A stretch of DNA of 62,741 nt, counting the filler. It is 3 parts of 3 records of this genome, joined end to end, with 100 filler letters (N's around TTAATTAATTAA, not from the genome) between each part and the next. Parts side by side here need not be neighbours in the genome. Positions count along the whole stretch, not along the records: positions 31,886 to 53,853 come from SRR20825019_484; 2 more parts are not named here. One strand, given 5' to 3'. The number at the start of each line of letters is the position of its first letter. Position 1 is the first letter of the stretch. The position numbers and the translations under genes are program-made. Below, one piece after another: positions 37,373 to 54,111 of the stretch. The notes below the pieces were generated by a model. It was given only the letters and a program-made list of their open reading frames with translations, made no database searches and had not been told where the DNA came from.

Positions 37373-37606
37373 TCAGGCGCCCTTGCGGATGACGAAGGTA
37401 AAGGCACCATCCAGCTCCGCCTCGCTCACCAGCTCATGACCGCCGCTATTGCAGAAATGCTTGAAATCCAGCGGTGACGCCGGGTCCGTCGATTGCACGG
37501 AGATCAATTGCCCGGGCTCAAGGCCTTTGATGGCCTTTCGGGTTTTCAGCACCGGTAGCGGACATTTCAGGCCGCTTGCATCCAGGGTCAGTGCCAACTC
37601 GCTCAT
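37373..37606 (-). CDS. tusA: Sulfur carrier TusA/SirA family
   Basis: LDASGLKCPLP and TDPAS..DF..FC motifs. Confidence 0.9.
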   Translation of the reverse strand: MSELALTLDASGLKCPLPVLKTRKAIKGLEPGQLISVQSTDPASPLDFKHFCNSGGHELVSEAELDGAFTFVIRKGA

Positions 37607-38399
37607 AGATCTCGGTCCCACAGGTGATCACGTTTGCTGCATATTGGGCCCCAGGGGCCGCATTGCCAATCCCGGCGGCATCCCGTCCAGCGCCTGTCGG
37701 ACGGGCATCGGCGATTTCCCGGATAATCTTGGCAAGCAGAACATCTGCGAACGGCGTCGCCTCGTCCGCCACCATGACAAAGGCACCAAGGCCGCCAATC
37801 ACATCCAGCCGGTAATGCATCTCCAGTGGAATATTTCCCGGCCCCCGATGGCCTCCGCCACGACTTTTTACAGCCAAAGCATTGATGGTGATGCCCGCAT
37901 CCACCGCCCGGTCGCGCGCCCAGTCGATGGGCCGTCCGCCAATCTGTGGGCCATCGCCGGAAACATCGATCACCATACGGGCGCCCTCATACCCGTTCGT
38001 CAGGATCTTGTCCGTGGAATAGGCAATGGCTTCGCTGATCGAGTTGTAACCCCAGGCCGCCCTGGGCGCGGAAAGTAACGACTCGCCGAATGCGAGAGCA
38101 TCGTCCGGACCGGAAATTTCCCGCCAGTCGACAATCGTGTGCTGGGAGGTCTCGTCACCCCATTCGATATAGCTGACCGCGATCTTGCCCCAGCGTCCGG
38201 AAGCAACGGCATCCAGCACACGCCGGTCAAGAAGCGCGTCAGCATAACCCTGCCGCTGTAACAGAAGTTCGTCATCATCAATCGAGCCGGAACCGTCAGC
38301 CGCAAAAACCAACTCGAGGTCTACCGGCTCGGCGACACCGCACGGCACATACGATGCCACTCCCAACAGCCCCAGAGCGACCGGCAGGCAGCAGCGCAT
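37518..38399 (-). CDS. DUF1194 (vWA-like) secreted protein
   Basis: VDLELVFAADGSGS, LQRQGYA.AL, VIDVSGDG, TINAL and VIGG.GAF motifs. Confidence 0.85.
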   Translation of the reverse strand: MRCCLPVALGLLGVASYVPCGVAEPVDLELVFAADGSGSIDDDELLLQRQGYADALLDRRVLDAVASGRWGKIAVSYIEWGDETSQHTIVDWREISGPDDALAFGESLLSAPRAAWGYNSISEAIAYSTDKILTNGYEGARMVIDVSGDGPQIGGRPIDWARDRAVDAGITINALAVKSRGGGHRGPGNIPLEMHYRLDVIGGLGAFVMVADEATPFADVLLAKIIREIADARPTGAGRDAAGIGNAAPGAQYAANVITCGTEIYERVGTDPGCKRPEMSATGAENPKGHQRP

Positions 38400-38447
38400 A
38401 AATCGGACATGAAGGCTTAACTTATTTGAAAAAAACCAGAACTTACC

Positions 38448-38597
38448 TGTGGATAACTTTTTTGACCCTATGGGAGCGATAGAAGCTTTAGATATGAGAG
38501 ATCCAGCTCGCCCCATGGTTACTCGCCTCTTGACATTCAGATCGAAAAGCCAATTCAGGGTATCGGTTTAAATTGGAAAAGATTGAAATTATTCACA
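38448..38597. promoter_or_regulatory. Pair of DnaA-box matches
   Basis: TGTGGATAA (38448-38456) and TTATTCACA (38589-38597), both matching TTATNCACA, in an AT-rich intergenic region. Confidence 0.5.
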
Positions 38598-38827
38598 AGC
38601 CATTCACAGTTTGGTATTTCGGCTGTACTGGCGGCGCGTGATGTTCGCCTTGAAATCTGATTTCCAACCAGCGAACAGAAACAAATATACCGGTCCTTTC
38701 GCTTTTTCGAAACATCAAAAAGGCCGGCCCGGAGAGATCGGAATATCAGAGCTTCAAGGCAGACGGCACTCCCTCGTGTAACGGCCGCCGGGCACTGTCA
38801 TGCCATAGGGCTTTACAGTCGGCCTGT

Positions 38828-39940
38828 TCAATAATCGGAAGTTCCAGCGGGGATCACTTCTAGGCTTCGTCTTGCAGAACGGACAGGCTGCCCATCCATC
38901 GCCAAAAGGTCCGCCTCCGCCTCAAGCCGAACCGGCTCCCTCACCCAATAAGGGAAATCTATTTGCAAAACCAGGCGATCGCCACCGTCAGTTACCCGCT
39001 GAAGCTCACGTCTGTAGCGGTTTTGGTCGACATAGCTGGAAAAAGCGCCCGTAACGGCCATGCGGATACGGTATTCCCCTCTCTCCGCAACACTCATCCG
39101 GCCGAAGCAAACCGGGCCCTTGAAGACTTCAAGATCCGGAGGAACAGGAATCGCGCTACCGCATTCACCGCTCACGGGATCCCGGGGCACAATCGAAAGA
39201 CTGATTAAACCGGCCACATCCCCGGCAGAGTTATGAGTCCTGTCATCGATCGCAGAAGGCCACAAAGCTAGGCCTGCGAATGCGGCAAGCAGCAGAGCGC
39301 AAATGGCTCCTCCGGCGACGGTGAGAGCTCTCAAACGGCTGTGTCTTGAAGCTCCCTCCTTCCACACAGACGGAGACACCTTCGGCAACAAACGCTCTAC
39401 CGCCTGCTGCCCGAGACAAATCTCCAGCGCATCCCGCGCGCCCGCCACGGGTTGAGTCTCCCAGCCATCCACACCCGAGATGCTTTCCGTTCCATGCGGA
39501 TACAGGAAGATACCTCCACCCTGCTCCGATGCGGCAGCGCGGGCGAGTTTTTCAGCAACATGCGAGACTGGCGTCACCTTCAGGTTCCGGTCCAGACCAC
39601 CCGTAACCAGAATGGTTTGTGCAGCCACATCCCCCGGCTTCGCCAGGGCACCGGAAAGATGAAAGGCATGCGCCAGGAACATTCCCAACTGCCAGCTCTC
39701 TCCCGCCTCTATCGGTGCGTCGACATCGGTGCGGTAGACTGGATGCCCCGTCATGCGTTCCACAACGCCTGTGGGCTCGCGCACGAAGGCATCGTAGGCC
39801 GGGCTGACCGGCAAGGCCGTGAACGATCCGCCGACGCAGATAACGGAGCGGACCGCCGGATTTTCACGCGCAATGTTCTGGACCTCTAACGGCCCGCGCG
39901 TTGTTGCGATCAGCACCCTGATCAACGGCATCGTCGCCAT
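38828..39940 (-). CDS. Single-pass membrane protein with an N-terminal Lon-like (S16) protease domain
   Basis: IEAGESWQLG (Ser82) and VTGGLD...VTPVSHVAEK (Lys131) match the Lon/RadA C-domain pattern; TM at about aa 205-227 after basic RHSRLR. Confidence 0.7.
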   Translation of the reverse strand: MATMPLIRVLIATTRGPLEVQNIARENPAVRSVICVGGSFTALPVSPAYDAFVREPTGVVERMTGHPVYRTDVDAPIEAGESWQLGMFLAHAFHLSGALAKPGDVAAQTILVTGGLDRNLKVTPVSHVAEKLARAAASEQGGGIFLYPHGTESISGVDGWETQPVAGARDALEICLGQQAVERLLPKVSPSVWKEGASRHSRLRALTVAGGAICALLLAAFAGLALWPSAIDDRTHNSAGDVAGLISLSIVPRDPVSGECGSAIPVPPDLEVFKGPVCFGRMSVAERGEYRIRMAVTGAFSSYVDQNRYRRELQRVTDGGDRLVLQIDFPYWVREPVRLEAEADLLAMDGQPVRSARRSLEVIPAGTSDY

Positions 39941-40509
39941 CAGGCCAGCAGAAACCGGCTATCCGGGTCACGAAACAGCCGAAGCAAAGGATCATCGGAC
40001 GGCAGCATGAGCTGGACTCCGCCATCCGCACTTTCAGGCAAAGCCCGCATCACCGTCTCGCCCGCTTCGGGAAGGCCAATCACAAGACGCGGCATGTCAC
40101 TACCCTCATCCAGACGTTCCACGATGAAATATGCCACCCCATCGGTTTCATAGGCGGCTTCCAGACGCATCCGGAACGCATCCGTTTCACGAACGGCCAG
40201 GGCGCCGTCACTCGCGGCGGCGACGGCAGGCAGATGCCCGAGAGCAAACCGGTGCGCCAACGCCGTAAGAGCCGCCCTGACATCCGCACGGCGCGCCGCC
40301 ATGTCCATGACGCGCCGCCCCGTGACGCTTCCCGGGTCGGCAAGACATTGAACGAAAGCCGCGAACGGAAGAGGCTTGTCCCCTGCGCCGGCGTCCTCCG
40401 TTTCAGGGGCTTCTGAAAGCCAGAGACGGATATCCCGATCAGCGGAACTGGCGGTGAAAAGCGCCTTGGCAAATTCGTCATCGTCCCCGGGGCGCTTTGC
40501 TTCGGTCAT
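39940..40509 (-). CDS. Hypothetical protein, anti-sigma-like
   Basis: GGGAG RBS; ATGA overlap with the upstream gene and TGATG overlap with the downstream gene; helical N-half, PAVAAASDG hinge, beta-rich C-half. Confidence 0.6.
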   Translation of the reverse strand: MTEAKRPGDDDEFAKALFTASSADRDIRLWLSEAPETEDAGAGDKPLPFAAFVQCLADPGSVTGRRVMDMAARRADVRAALTALAHRFALGHLPAVAAASDGALAVRETDAFRMRLEAAYETDGVAYFIVERLDEGSDMPRLVIGLPEAGETVMRALPESADGGVQLMLPSDDPLLRLFRDPDSRFLLA

Positions 40510-42182
40510 GCGGTCTCCCGGTAAAGCGCAGCGAGCGCGGTATGGAAACGGCGGCAATCCTCTTCAAACACCTGTTCCGCAGGGATCAGGCTGAAATGAC
40601 GTTCCAGCGCGGCAAGAAATGCGCGCAGCTCTTCCCCGCAGGCCCGCATCAGCGGCTCACATGCCGTGGCGGCCTCCATGATTTCGGGCTCGCACACCCG
40701 CTCTTCCTCGAAACCGCGCCGGTTCACCTTGGCAAAAGCCAGACGGGAAGCCTTGAAAAGCCCGGCTTCCGGCATTGTCTCCGGATCACCATCAACAGCG
40801 CCCCGCAGCAAACGGCCAATCGCCCCGCCCGGGCGCAAGGGAATTACATTGTCAGCAAAGTCAGCTTCAGGCTCGTTGATCCTGTTTCGCAATGCCCGGG
40901 CGACCTCCGGGAAGAGATCGAAACCGATCTCGAAAGCTTCGGGCCGCGCATTCCGGAACAGGATAAACATCAGGGCTTGCCGGACTTTCCTGATCTGCCC
41001 CGTCAATTCCTGGAAATCGGCCGTTGCGGCGCTGTAATCCTCGACCGGTTTCTGATCGATCAGCGTATCGACGGAAGCACGCGGCCCCGCCGTCTGTCTT
41101 TTCCGGACGGCCTGGACGATCCGGGCCTGATGCGCACCGAAACATTCCGCCCTCAATATGGTCAAGGGCAAGATAGAGGCCGCATCACCCGCTTCCATCA
41201 TCAGCTCAAGCCGCGTGCCCTCACGTTTGTTGATGGCCTTCAACCGGTCGGCTGGTGGCAGGGCCAATTCCGCAAGCACGGACCGTCGGCCGTCGGTCAC
41301 TTCTAAAGCGCTGCAGATCTCCCCCGGATCGACCTCCCCGGCATCCCGGGATGAGCCGATCGGCGCCGCCGCATCGATGGCAAGCCGGTCGGCGGCCGCC
41401 TTCAGCGCCAGTCTCAGATGCAGAAAGTTGATCGCAACCGTCCGGAACCCCTTGAAGTCGCTTCCCGCGCGCCTGTCGGAGCAGCACTCCTCCCAGAAGG
41501 CGAGCACTGTGCGGTCATCGATTGCATCTGCACTGACCCGCCGCCCCGTTCTGTCCGCGATGAAGTTGCACATCGCGTTGAATTTCCGTTCATACTGCTG
41601 CGACGGCAGATGGTCCTTCAGGAAATCATAGAGCCTCCGGGACAGCCCATTGGCAAAGGCCTGCATGTCTTCCCGGTCTTTCGGGCCGGACAGGAAAGCG
41701 GATATGTCATCATCCAGCTCGGCAAATCCGAGCGCGGTGACGCAGAAATCCAGCAGCGCCGCCAGAAAGGGCATGCGTCCGTAGCTCACCCTGAACACCG
41801 GCCCCGGATAGTTGATGATCAACTCATCCGCTCCCGCCTCGATCTCCCTTGGCGCTGTGCTGCGTCCCGCAGCCGAGAGAGCGGCGGCCCTGTAGGCACC
41901 AGGCGTCGCGGCCCGGACGCCCCAGAAGAAACCGACATAGCCGTGACGGCCGGAAAGCTGGTCCGCGGCCGCTATCAGATAAGCGAGTTCAAGAAGAGGC
42001 TTGCCATAAGCCCTGGCGGCGATGGTCTGAACCAGGGTGCGGCGGGTTCGCGCATCGTAACGCCCGCCATCGTCACCAGACGCATCGAGCACGGCGGCAA
42101 GCGCCGCAGCCAGCTCGTTGCTGATCTCGGTCCTGAGACCAGATGCGCTGCCACCGAAATCCAAAATCGGCACCGGACCCAT
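40506..42182 (-). CDS. Hypothetical helical protein with degenerate sigma70-like motifs
   Basis: 558-aa ORF; motifs resembling sigma regions 2.4, 3, 3.2, 4.1 and 4.2 in the correct order (see findings). Confidence 0.55.
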   Translation of the reverse strand: MGPVPILDFGGSASGLRTEISNELAAALAAVLDASGDDGGRYDARTRRTLVQTIAARAYGKPLLELAYLIAAADQLSGRHGYVGFFWGVRAATPGAYRAAALSAAGRSTAPREIEAGADELIINYPGPVFRVSYGRMPFLAALLDFCVTALGFAELDDDISAFLSGPKDREDMQAFANGLSRRLYDFLKDHLPSQQYERKFNAMCNFIADRTGRRVSADAIDDRTVLAFWEECCSDRRAGSDFKGFRTVAINFLHLRLALKAAADRLAIDAAAPIGSSRDAGEVDPGEICSALEVTDGRRSVLAELALPPADRLKAINKREGTRLELMMEAGDAASILPLTILRAECFGAHQARIVQAVRKRQTAGPRASVDTLIDQKPVEDYSAATADFQELTGQIRKVRQALMFILFRNARPEAFEIGFDLFPEVARALRNRINEPEADFADNVIPLRPGGAIGRLLRGAVDGDPETMPEAGLFKASRLAFAKVNRRGFEEERVCEPEIMEAATACEPLMRACGEELRAFLAALERHFSLIPAEQVFEEDCRRFHTALAALYRETA

Positions 42183-42284
42183 CCAATATGGTGAATATTG
42201 TTTTATTTATTCGTTTTTTGCGTGTTTATATTTGTCGATTTTTCCATTATCGGCAATAGCTTATCCTACGCAGAACAAGCCGCG

Positions 42285-43112
42285 TCAGGGCGCTGGGGCG
42301 ATCACAGTCAGACGGGTGCCGGCTCCATGATCAACGATCCGGGCTCCGGATAACCCGGTGCCAATGACGATCTTTCCCAAACGCTCATGGAACTCTGTTT
42401 CGGATGCCGGACTGCTATAGCGCAAGCCGATGCCTCCGCCCGCTTCCGGCAGCTTGATAACGACAGGCGTCAACGGCCCGCCCCCCTCGACCAAAAGGAT
42501 ATCGGCAAGTGTGAAAACCGCTTCCGGGGCTATTCCATCGAAAGCGATCTCGAACGCCGTAGTCTCTGCCTGCGGAGAGCCCTCCGGTGGAAGTCCCGCC
42601 GCTGCGACCGTATAGGGAAGAATGTGAAGCGCGCCTTTTTGCCGCTGCGCGTTCGTCGCTAACTGCCGAAAAAAAACGTCCGCTGAGACGGGAGCCGTTT
42701 CTGCAAGCACGGCTGGGAGACCCTCGGTCAGCAGAACGAAAATCGCCTCCCGGTCCTGACGCAGCCCGGTCCGCGCGGCGACAAACAGTCCGGGCGTACC
42801 GCCGATTCGGATAAGGTGTTTCTTACCTGCCGGAATCTGGAGCACAGGCCCGTCCCCGGCCTGCGCCATCCGGCCGGTAAAGCGGATGGGCTGGACCATT
42901 CCATCCGCCGTCCGGGCGTAAAACGCCGCGCGGCGCGTATACGGAGACGCGGCAATATGGACACGCGGCACGGCCCCGCCACGCAGGGCCGCCACATCAA
43001 GCCAGACCTCCGGCTCTGCCGCGCCGACATCCAGCGGCGCGACAAGGAAGAAGGAGAAAATCACGCCCGCAAGCAGGAGCGCGCGCACCGGATCAGCTCT
43101 TGCGCGCCGCAA
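42285..43112 (-). CDS. Secreted protein, DUF4384-like N-terminal domain
   Basis: Signal peptide; LQIP...IRIGG.PG...EAIFVLLT...FFRQL...LPYTV pattern; start overlaps the end of speB. Confidence 0.5.
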   Translation of the reverse strand: MRRARADPVRALLLAGVIFSFFLVAPLDVGAAEPEVWLDVAALRGGAVPRVHIAASPYTRRAAFYARTADGMVQPIRFTGRMAQAGDGPVLQIPAGKKHLIRIGGTPGLFVAARTGLRQDREAIFVLLTEGLPAVLAETAPVSADVFFRQLATNAQRQKGALHILPYTVAAAGLPPEGSPQAETTAFEIAFDGIAPEAVFTLADILLVEGGGPLTPVVIKLPEAGGGIGLRYSSPASETEFHERLGKIVIGTGLSGARIVDHGAGTRLTVIAPAP

Positions 43113-53953: not shown

Positions 53954-54111
53954 GTGTGCTTATGACTCCAAGCGCCGGGCGAGACGGACTCAGACTCCGT
54001 ACTGCCGTCGTCGTGATGAGCGGTGAGTCTCAGTGTTCCTTCTTTTCAGTGGTGGTGGGTCGTTGCCTGAGGTGCTGGGCCCGCCGGACCCGTGGCAACT
54101 GACCCACCCTC

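Follow-up and report, generated by a model that had tools for sequence, protein, structure and literature searches.

Organization of the Locus

The subject of this analysis is a set of three hypothetical genes, named g1, g2, and g3 here, which follow each other in this order on the minus strand of a stretch of DNA of 62,741 nucleotides (nt). This whole stretch is referred to as the window. A preliminary description had proposed that the genes encode a signaling system consisting of a sigma-like protein, an anti-sigma-like protein, and a membrane-anchored protease. We found that g1, g2, and g3 are a conserved, co-inherited, and translationally coupled unit, in which the N-terminal domain of g3 is a putative distant relative of the Lon proteases and g2 carries an invariant Ala-rich linker. 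The genes and their features are located as follows (aa, amino acids; ORF, open reading frame; TM, transmembrane):

40506..42182, minus strand: g1, ORF of 558 aa; cytoplasmic and mostly helical; presumed output or effector protein
39940..40509, minus strand: g2, ORF of 189 aa from the ATG at 40509; two domains; proposed protease substrate or adaptor
40210..40230, minus strand: linker of g2, P94-A-V-A97-A98-A99-S100; coil in the model; proposed cleavage or recognition site
38828..39940, minus strand: g3, ORF of 370 aa; Lon-like domain, TM helix, and outer domain
39416..39940, minus strand: putative Lon-like (S16-type) Ser-Lys domain of g3, about aa 1-175, from profile matches and the dyad
39695-39697 and 39548-39550, minus strand: codons of Ser82 and Lys131 of g3, respectively
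39263..39319, minus strand: predicted TM helix of g3, aa 208-226, N-terminus inside; Kyte-Doolittle peak of 2.34
38831..39262, minus strand: predicted extracytoplasmic C-terminal domain of g3; beta-rich, with C260 and C278; variable between genera; presumed sensor

Reading of the ORFs agreed with the layout that had been described. The stop codon of g1 and the start codon of g2 overlap in the sequence ATGA at 40506-40509, and the stop codon of g2 and the start codon of g3 overlap in TGATG at 39938-39942. An upstream TTG as an alternative start of g2 would give a protein of 205 aa. The ATG of g1 at 42182 was not conserved; the relatives probably start at a GTG three codons further downstream, which would result in a protein of 555 aa. 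The flanking spacers were AT-rich, as had also been noted, with a GC content (calculated over 300 nt) of 0.52-0.55 at 42183-42284 and 0.46-0.49 at 38517-38827, compared with about 0.60-0.66 in the gene interiors.

None of the three proteins, nor the 275-aa protein encoded upstream of g1, matched a family of Pfam, NCBIfam, PADLOC, or PHROGs at E values up to 1, apart from rows at chance level for g2 (PqqD with E 0.2 in Pfam and PRK05379.1-5 with E 0.035 in NCBIfam), which were far under the curated cut-offs.

The g3 Protein

The architecture that had been suggested for g3, a cytoplasmic Ser-Lys domain followed by one TM helix and an outer domain, was borne out by profile comparisons, by the hydrophobicity profile, by the charges flanking the TM helix, and by the distribution of Cys residues. 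When profiles of the g3 family were compared to the PDB, the matches were exclusively Lon proteases: 16 of 16 for alignment A1 (best E 0.028) and 37 of 37 for the broader alignment A5 (best E 0.0015). The g3 motif T-G-x-x-D-x-x-L-x-V-x-P-V-x-H-V-x-x-K aligned with the T-G-...-P-V/I-G-G-...-K motif of Lon, which placed Lys131 on the catalytic Lys of Lon. In an hhalign comparison with the C-terminal domains of LonA (P 0.008), the segment GESWQLG with Ser82 was aligned with the Ser of GPSAG, and HVAEKL with GLKEKL. A genome search with a profile of the protease domain detected, over the same segment, a protein (E about 1e-8, 29.7 bits) in which Pfam recognizes both Lon_C (6e-10) and a LonB-type AAA domain. 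Ser82 and Lys131 were invariant in all 27 intact sequences, the most distant ones included, so that the conservation of these two residues, on which the preliminary description had relied, was confirmed.

The g3 protein of the window alone did not match Lon_C in Pfam even at E 1, nor did it show a Pfam match of any kind. No AAA family match was found on g3 or on 19 scanned relatives. In the ESM Atlas, aa 1-190 of g3 led to a cluster at 0.87 in which 19% of the members were Lon_C proteins and to one at 0.79 with 81% Lon_C members; we treated these as leads and did not count them as evidence. On the basis of the profiles and the dyad, we accepted the N-terminal domain of g3 as probably a Ser-Lys domain of the Lon type, distant in sequence and lacking an AAA+ module.

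The N-terminal 175 residues of g3 were very conserved and the remainder was not; outside of Nisaea, aa 7-135 were the only part with detectable conservation in most loci. A strong hydrophobic segment was nevertheless present after the protease domain in all 20 homologues inspected, and it was a single peak in 19 of them. In the same number (19/20), the peak was at a comparable position, with the sliding frame starting between aa 189 and 232; the degenerate copy L021 had its peak at aa 135 together with a second peak. In the g3 protein of the window, four Lys or Arg residues precede the TM helix and one follows it, with two Cys beyond the helix. Most homologues likewise had more Lys or Arg on the N-terminal flank, and 19 of 20 had two or four Cys after the TM helix, with C260 and C278 being invariant in alignment A1. 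The bias in Lys and Arg and the Cys pattern fit a cytoplasmic location of the protease and a disulfide-bonded domain on the outer side of the membrane. Neither the window protein nor most of its relatives had a Pfam match in this outer domain. By these features, g3 is predicted to be a bitopic inner-membrane protein with a cytoplasmic protease domain and a variable, disulfide-type outer domain.

The g2 Protein and Its Linker

The g2 protein had been described as a two-domain protein of 189 aa with an Ala-rich hinge, and the structure model supported this. The AlphaFold2 (AF2) model (predicted local distance difference test, pLDDT, 87.2; predicted template modeling score, pTM, 0.78) consisted of helices at 12-88, a coil or hinge at 94-105 that includes P94-A-V-A-A-A-S100, and the strands of a beta-sandwich at 106-188. 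The family as a whole was poorly conserved, with 18-28% identity to the g2 of the window outside of Nisaea. Six columns were invariant across 39 sequences, and four of these were the linker residues P94, A97, A98, and A99. The pattern P-x(1-3)-AAA occurred in 30 of 34 unique g2 ORFs; the other four were two near-variants (PQAIAAS and SRVAAAAS) and two fragments. The linker, with the consensus P-x-V/A-A-A-A-S, was the only invariant block of g2.

The additional claim that g2 resembles an anti-sigma factor was not supported. We detected no MazF, DUF2080, or anti-sigma family signal, and there was no Pfam match in 39 members at E values up to 10. The g2 profile gave four unrelated weak matches to the PDB, and the fold search with the g2 model gave no clear match.

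According to the available part of a preprint, CCaCalpL cuts CalpT in the sequence LAAA, between A204 and A205 (bioRxiv 10.1101/2024.05.08.593097). By analogy, the invariant linker of g2 is of the same type as this CalpT site, and it is plausible as a candidate cleavage site. A complex prediction for g1, aa 1-190 of g3, and g2, in which alignments were unused, returned values of 0.50, 0.47, and 0.33, with 0.47 in a control with g1 replaced and 0.00 in controls with the partner replaced; this prediction gave no verdict and is evidence neither way.

Conservation of the Gene Set

The preliminary description presumed that the three genes would occur together in other genomes, and the survey of gene neighborhoods bore this out. 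A search of species-representative genomes seeded with g3 yielded 23 loci, which belonged to Nisaea, Terasakiella, Thalassobaculum, strain BAL199, and metagenome-assembled genomes (MAGs) of Kiloniellales, Sedimenticolaceae, and other Alphaproteobacteria or Rhodospirillales. By tblastn, g1 was located directly upstream of g3 in all but one of these loci (22/23), and an ORF of 174-189 aa filled the g2 slot. With the g1 profile, 14 of 401 genomes of an even sample of Alphaproteobacteria matched. All 12 matches with E<=1e-15, of which one was a decayed copy, were followed downstream by g2 and by the protease domain of g3. The profile of the protease domain matched in 13 of 401 genomes of an even sample of Pseudomonadota, and g1 adjoined in 11 of the 12 places that were fetched; the twelfth encoded an ordinary LonB-like protein.

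After exclusion of three loci that repeated others, the searches that started from g3, from g1, or from the protease domain of g3 comprised 49 sources, and g1, g2, and g3 were present in order on one strand in 44 of these. The five exceptions were two decayed loci (L021 and L023), one locus with no detectable g2 (L141), a lone, distant g1-like gene (L081), and the LonB-like protein (L143). Stop/start overlaps of 4 nt or 1 nt were also seen in other genera. Since the samples were seeded with the genes of the module itself and include related genomes, these counts show linkage, not frequency.

The degree of conservation differed between the three proteins, g1 being the most conserved. Identity to the copies of N. 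denitrificans was 91% for g1, 83% for g2, and 75% for g3, and identity to a distant Nisaea MAG was 60%, 37%, and 46%, respectively. Among 1.84 billion representatives, the g1 family comprised 921 clusters (50% identity) at E<=1e-3. A search of viral contigs with the g1 profile resulted in 103 pattern matches, none of which was confirmed. Some genomes carried two paralogous copies of the module (Terasakiella pusilla, and G451 with loci L142 and L150). The entire region of the trio was lacking in genome G001, which corresponds to the window only at 1-31785; a g3 search of 41 genomes chosen as relatives by way of G001 gave 0 matches, a result that has no meaning for this locus. We also observed a decayed copy (L048/L054, on contig G201:C2), in which a TGA splits g1, the 3' part of g1 continues in frame into the end of g2, and the protease domain is reduced to the first 65 profile positions.

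The g1 Protein

The g1 protein had been considered sigma-like on the basis of motifs resembling sigma70 that are visible by eye (IDDRTVLAFW; FGAHQARIVQAVRK). Neither Sigma70_r2 nor Sigma70_r4 nor any other sigma family of Pfam matched g1 or any of 39 members of its family at E values up to 10. When five genomes each were scanned with PF04542 (Sigma70_r2) and PF08281 (r4_2), 3-22 sigma genes per genome were found, never including the g1 locus. The g1 profile had 0 matches in the PDB at E values up to 10. In profile-profile comparisons by hhalign, the probability for g1 and sigma alignments was 0.4-1.1%, compared with 94.5% for a control of extracytoplasmic function (ECF) sigma factors and RpoH-like proteins. 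The AF2 model of g1 (pLDDT 84.5, pTM 0.68) was mostly helical with a small sheet and found no fold match in the PDB or BFVD, where small domains can be missed with a model of 558 aa. In the ESM Atlas, there was no match above 0.89 for g1.

One comparison pointed in the other direction. Residues 195-375 of g1 aligned co-linearly with a profile of seven ECF sequences with a score of 23.0 (P 0.012), above the values of 60 block shuffles (mean 14.8, maximum 22.1). With a broader profile of 23 ECF sequences, the score for the same residues was 19.1, which lay within the range of 80 shuffles (mean 15.8, standard deviation 2.9, maximum 26.2), and the sigma70-like motifs thus did not exceed chance. 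In addition, the model showed a continuous helix at 339-362, at the place that would need a helix-turn-helix. Neither families and profiles nor the fold gave a signal for a sigma factor, and we consider the labels sigma and anti-sigma for g1 and g2 unsupported.

A different indication came from a fusion protein. In P0126, a DnaG-type CHC2 zinc ribbon (PF01807, Zn_ribbon_DnaG, 1.5e-35) precedes g1 as an N-terminal fusion. This fusion occurred in one lineage, a cluster of three members from three contigs. The fused gene is present in the metagenome loci L084 (4022-6157) and L085 (3982-6117), and both keep the order of a lytic transglycosylase (SLT) gene, g1, g2, and g3. The zinc-ribbon fusion of this lineage makes a nucleic-acid-directed regulator or effector the more likely function for g1, rather than a sigma factor.

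Residues 277-281 of g1 (window positions 41339-41353) are a conserved A-A-P-I-G, followed by a conserved G-E-V-D-P, and lie within the internal stretch that has the lowest confidence in the g1 model (pLDDT 49-62). This segment may offer another Ala-rich site, or it may form a loop for metal binding or catalysis.

Variant Architectures

One variant among the loci examined lacked the TM helix. In genome G293 (locus L080, G293:C5, 4533-11662), a protein of 1175 aa comprises the Lon-like domain, a NACHT module, a winged helix, and HEAT repeats. The NACHT module was recognized as NPHP3_N (1.2e-16), NACHT (4.7e-7), and AAA_16 (2.3e-6) and has the Walker A and B sequences GDPGAGKS and VVDGLDE; the g3 of the window has no NTPase. 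In this variant, g1 and g2 were still located upstream, and a gene for an S-adenosylmethionine (SAM)-dependent methyltransferase was inserted between g2 and g3. The same protease together with g1 and g2 would be driven here by NACHT-HEAT instead of a membrane sensor. This gives the cassette the look of an output module that is portable between sensors and works in the manner of CalpL-CalpT-CalpS or BlaR1-BlaI.

The available part of the source describes activation of CalpL by sensor-driven oligomerization. By analogy, the NACHT-HEAT fusion of the protease domain fits a putative activation of this kind.

Terasakiella pusilla has a second, divergent set of SLT, g1, g2, and g3 genes (L079, G044:C25, 4678-8580). 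The g3 of this paralogous set ends in DUF4384 (8.6e-13), and its g2 linker reads PQAIAAS. DUF4384 is often fused to proteases and is present in some Csx30 C-termini, according to the available part of the source (10.1101/2022.08.17.504292). A further variant (L140, G454:C4, 4873-6888, minus strand) contains g2 and g3 as a single ORF of 672 aa with a second motif, PKVAAAT, just before the TM helix.

Neighboring Genes, Leader, and Composition of the Window

Two features lie directly upstream of g1:

42183..42284, minus strand: leader or promoter region of g1; AT-rich, about 100 nt, conserved across Nisaea species
42285..43112, minus strand: gene for a protein of 275 aa that has no known family and starts with a signal-peptide-like sequence; may belong to the system

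The 275-aa gene was kept upstream of g1 in the window and in six Nisaea loci. In most other genera, this slot is held by an SLT gene with a signal-peptide-like start, which was located on the same strand less than 1 kb upstream in 25 of the 49 sources and about 2 kb upstream in two Terasakiella loci. We considered the 275-aa protein as a relative of SLT and rejected this, as there was no profile similarity (hhalign probability 0.8%). A fixed upstream neighbor in Nisaea is presumably agmatinase-like, judged by reading of the sequence without a family search.

The leader was better conserved than the proteins. An alignment of seven Nisaea sequences (A6), including L006 and L007 with a g2 identity of 37-39%, contained long invariant blocks, and the leader may be a regulatory element.

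Downstream of g3, a gene on the minus strand (37518-38516) encodes a DUF1194 (vWA-like) protein (E 2e-58). It directly adjoined g3 in all Nisaea loci, and in Thalassobaculum, BAL199, and two MAGs it was found at a distance of 6-7 kb. The locus thus keeps its chromosomal neighborhood within that family. Three loci (L014, L020, L022) had two more genes on the same strand after g3, of about 192 aa and 230-400 aa, with no Pfam match.

Scans of the window for Rfam families and tRNAs gave no matches, and a scan for the sigma-70 consensus resulted in 0 promoter-like sites. Eight terminator-like sites compared with 4.8 expected, every one within genes. From two RNA-Seq libraries of one study, five contigs of 180-268 nt were 97-100% identical to the locus. 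They mapped to g1, to the g1/g2 and g2/g3 junctions, and to the spacer downstream of g3. Because RNA libraries may contain DNA, these contigs are not proof of transcription or of an operon transcript.

The window is a composite. Positions 1-31785 (GC about 0.54) were 100% identical and colinear with G001:C1:1116595-1148379, from an unrelated genome. Beyond 31785, the GC content was about 0.61, and the sequence was absent from G001 and syntenic with Nisaea contigs; the trio sits in this Nisaea-like piece. After about position 54000, the GC content falls again to about 0.53, and this may be a third piece.

Proposed Mechanism and Alternative Explanations

From the set of parts, their linkage, the Ser-Lys dyad, the topology of g3, and the linker motif of g2, we infer a sensor-protease cascade, with a cue, binding between the proteins, a cleavage, and a role of g1 as its proposed elements. 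The outer domain of g3 would sense the cue, a part that would be taken by the NACHT-HEAT module in the G293 variant, and the sensed cue would bring g3 protease domains together. The activated protease would then cut g2 within the Ala-rich linker, and the cut would change the state of g1, the output, by release or by activation. A protease-cascade logic is plausible for the trio, and for the cascade in this particular form we see about an even chance. The cue is possibly related to the cell wall, since a lytic transglycosylase gene usually lies just upstream.

Regarding the biological role, the SLT neighbor and the stable position point to envelope signaling, and phage defense is suggested by the patchy occurrence, by a sensor that varies, by the variants with NACHT or DUF4384, and by the paralogues. 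In a wider version of the cascade, the trio would be a portable and undescribed output cassette. Different sensors (a periplasmic disulfide domain, DUF4384, or NACHT-HEAT) would join the proteases, g2 would be cut at A-A-A|S, and g1 would be unleashed as a DNA-directed effector or a regulator of transcription that belongs to a new class, in an envelope or phage surveillance that is independent of CRISPR and cyclic nucleotides. We put this version forward tentatively and regard it as rather doubtful.

Several points weigh against the cascade. The role of g1 is derived from a fusion in a single lineage, and no DNA-binding fold was found in searches with the g1 model. The hhalign probability for g3 and LonA was 4.8%, which is a weak profile statistic, as is the best E value of 0.0015 against the PDB, and the alignment to Lon covers the C-terminal half of the g3 protease domain only. 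For the two domains of g2, there was no match to CalpT, MazF, DUF2080, or an anti-sigma factor. Since the hinge of g2 is modeled fairly confidently (pLDDT about 85), it may be packed and not exposed, and its motif might just as well serve as a strand for docking. The g2-g3 fusion ORF of L140, which also counts in favor of g2 as the substrate but was seen in a single genome, could be a sequencing error at the overlapping stop and start codons. Finally, a housekeeping role would be as compatible as an immune role with the stable chromosomal position that the locus has in Nisaea and its family.

The use of the linker for docking leads to a different wiring of the same parts, in which g2 would dock on the protease via its linker and act as an adaptor or inhibitor, and the true substrate would be g1, g3 itself, or another protein. 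The AAPIG loop of g1, poorly ordered in the model and followed by GEVDP, would be a candidate site, the g2 linker is modeled as ordered and not as floppy, and the g2-g3 fusion ORF with its second motif before the TM helix would suit a permanent adaptor. The Pro that directly follows the Ala pair in AAPIG, however, is an unusual residue at P1', and an invariant, short, Ala-rich linker between poorly conserved domains has the look of a cleavage site and matches the precedent of CalpT. We consider this wiring unlikely. It is still less probable, in our view, that the trio is a housekeeping envelope module, which would act with the lytic transglycosylase in wall remodeling or in quality control of membrane proteins, g3 being a constitutive protease and g1 and g2 structural or chaperone-like proteins. 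Such a role would agree with the SLT gene upstream in 25 plus two of the sources, with the position kept across Nisaea and the DUF1194 gene nearby in Thalassobaculum and BAL199, with the lack of PADLOC or PHROGs matches, and with a family that was not found in viral contigs. It does not agree with the patchy occurrence of the module in the sampled genomes (14/401 and 13/401), with an outer domain of g3 that is hypervariable while g1 is strongly conserved, with NACHT-HEAT and DUF4384 variants, which are typical of sensing and conflict systems, or with the two paralogous copies in some genomes.

The mechanism of the preliminary description, with g1 as a very divergent sigma factor, g2 as its anti-sigma factor, and g3 as the protease that frees the sigma factor, would be a switch of the CalpL-CalpT-CalpS type without SAVED or cas genes. 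The architecture parallels that of CalpL, CalpT, and CalpS, the Ala-rich site in the middle protein included, the strongly conserved leader of g1 could be an autoregulated promoter, and one hhalign run placed aa 195-375 co-linear with ECF regions 2 and 4, above all 60 block shuffles. This signal was gone with the 23-sequence profile, and the family, PDB, and profile-profile searches and the scans for sigma genes were all negative for g1. The uninterrupted helix in the model also argues against this mechanism, and g1 is roughly three times as large as an ECF sigma factor. We regard a sigma factor as highly improbable and retain the cascade with a nucleic-acid-directed g1 as our working model.

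If the cascade is true, it would be a second, CRISPR-independent example of Lon-domain signaling proteases after CalpL, and also a rare case in which a single-pass membrane protein passes information to the inside of the cell by switching on its own cytoplasmic protease domain. The NACHT-fused variant points to forced oligomerization as the activation mechanism, the DnaG zinc-ribbon fusion to single-stranded DNA or replication as the target, and the link with the lytic transglycosylase gene suggests a cell-wall cue that can be tested. As the families are large and all unannotated, a function for one member would give a name to thousands of hypothetical proteins.

Comparison with Known Systems

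We searched the literature and found no description of this gene set, supplements and subscription journals being outside of the coverage. The protease domain shares with LonA, LonB, and LonC (MEROPS S16) a C-terminal half with T-G-x(5)-L/G-x-V-x-P-V/I-x(4)-K, the serine motif G-x-S-W/A-x-L/G, and the Ser-Lys dyad. It differs from canonical Lon by the lack of AAA+, by its N-terminal 80 residues, which are a family-specific and very conserved segment, and by the fusion to a TM sensor or to NACHT.

In Craspase (Cas7-11/Csx29 with Csx30-Csx31-RpoE), as proposed for the trio, a sensor-activated protease cuts a linker between the conserved and the divergent domain of a partner that holds a regulator. 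In the available part of the source, DUF4384 occurs in some C-terminal domains of Csx30, and it also occurs on a g3 paralogue. Unlike g3, the protease of Craspase is caspase-like (CHAT) and RNA-guided, and its output is the sigma factor RpoE; the searches revealed no resemblance to g1 or g2 in sequence or fold. The G293 variant, in which a protease domain precedes a NACHT module (Walker A and B), a winged helix, and HEAT repeats, has a layout like that of bacterial NLR-related NACHT/STAND defense proteins with N-terminal effector domains. The peptidase effectors in the available part of the bNACHT preprint do not include Lon, and "Lon" as a whole word is absent from the main text of PMC13581612 and of this preprint; supplements may list Lon-type effectors. 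The effector described here also comes with two dedicated partner genes.

The similarities to CalpL-CalpT-CalpS are more extensive. Both are three-gene sets, and in both a Lon-type Ser-Lys domain without AAA+ is fused to a sensor. The middle protein has two domains and an Ala-rich site between them, and activation would be driven by oligomerization, which is suggested here by the NACHT variant; for CalpT and CalpL, these two points follow the available part of the sources. Unlike CalpL, g3 has no SAVED match, as had been stated for the trio, and its sensor would be a TM helix with an outer domain. The g2 protein has no MazF or DUF2080 signal, and g1, with 558 aa, is not detectably a sigma factor. 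The statement that cas genes are missing held for the immediate neighbors: none was found among these in the window and in 22 related loci as clustered and scanned, the whole window not having been screened for cas.

In BlaR1-BlaI and MecR1-MecI, one protein serves as a transmembrane sensor-protease for a cell-wall-related cue, and its outer sensor is linked through the membrane to the cytoplasmic protease, whose activation leads to cleavage of a cytoplasmic regulator. BlaR1, a zinc metalloprotease, has several TM helices and a sensor that binds penicillin, and its substrate is a winged-helix repressor. The signaling logic would be alike, and a cell-wall cue would fit the SLT neighbor of the trio; in contrast, the metalloprotease, penicillin-binding, and winged-helix families were undetected in the family scans of the trio. 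By analogy, CalpL-CalpT-CalpS thus appears closest in logic and protease type, and BlaR1-BlaI appears closest for the predicted signaling by a transmembrane sensor-protease. The trio comprises three unannotated families and belongs to neither of these systems; it is a variation on the known theme of Lon-domain signaling.

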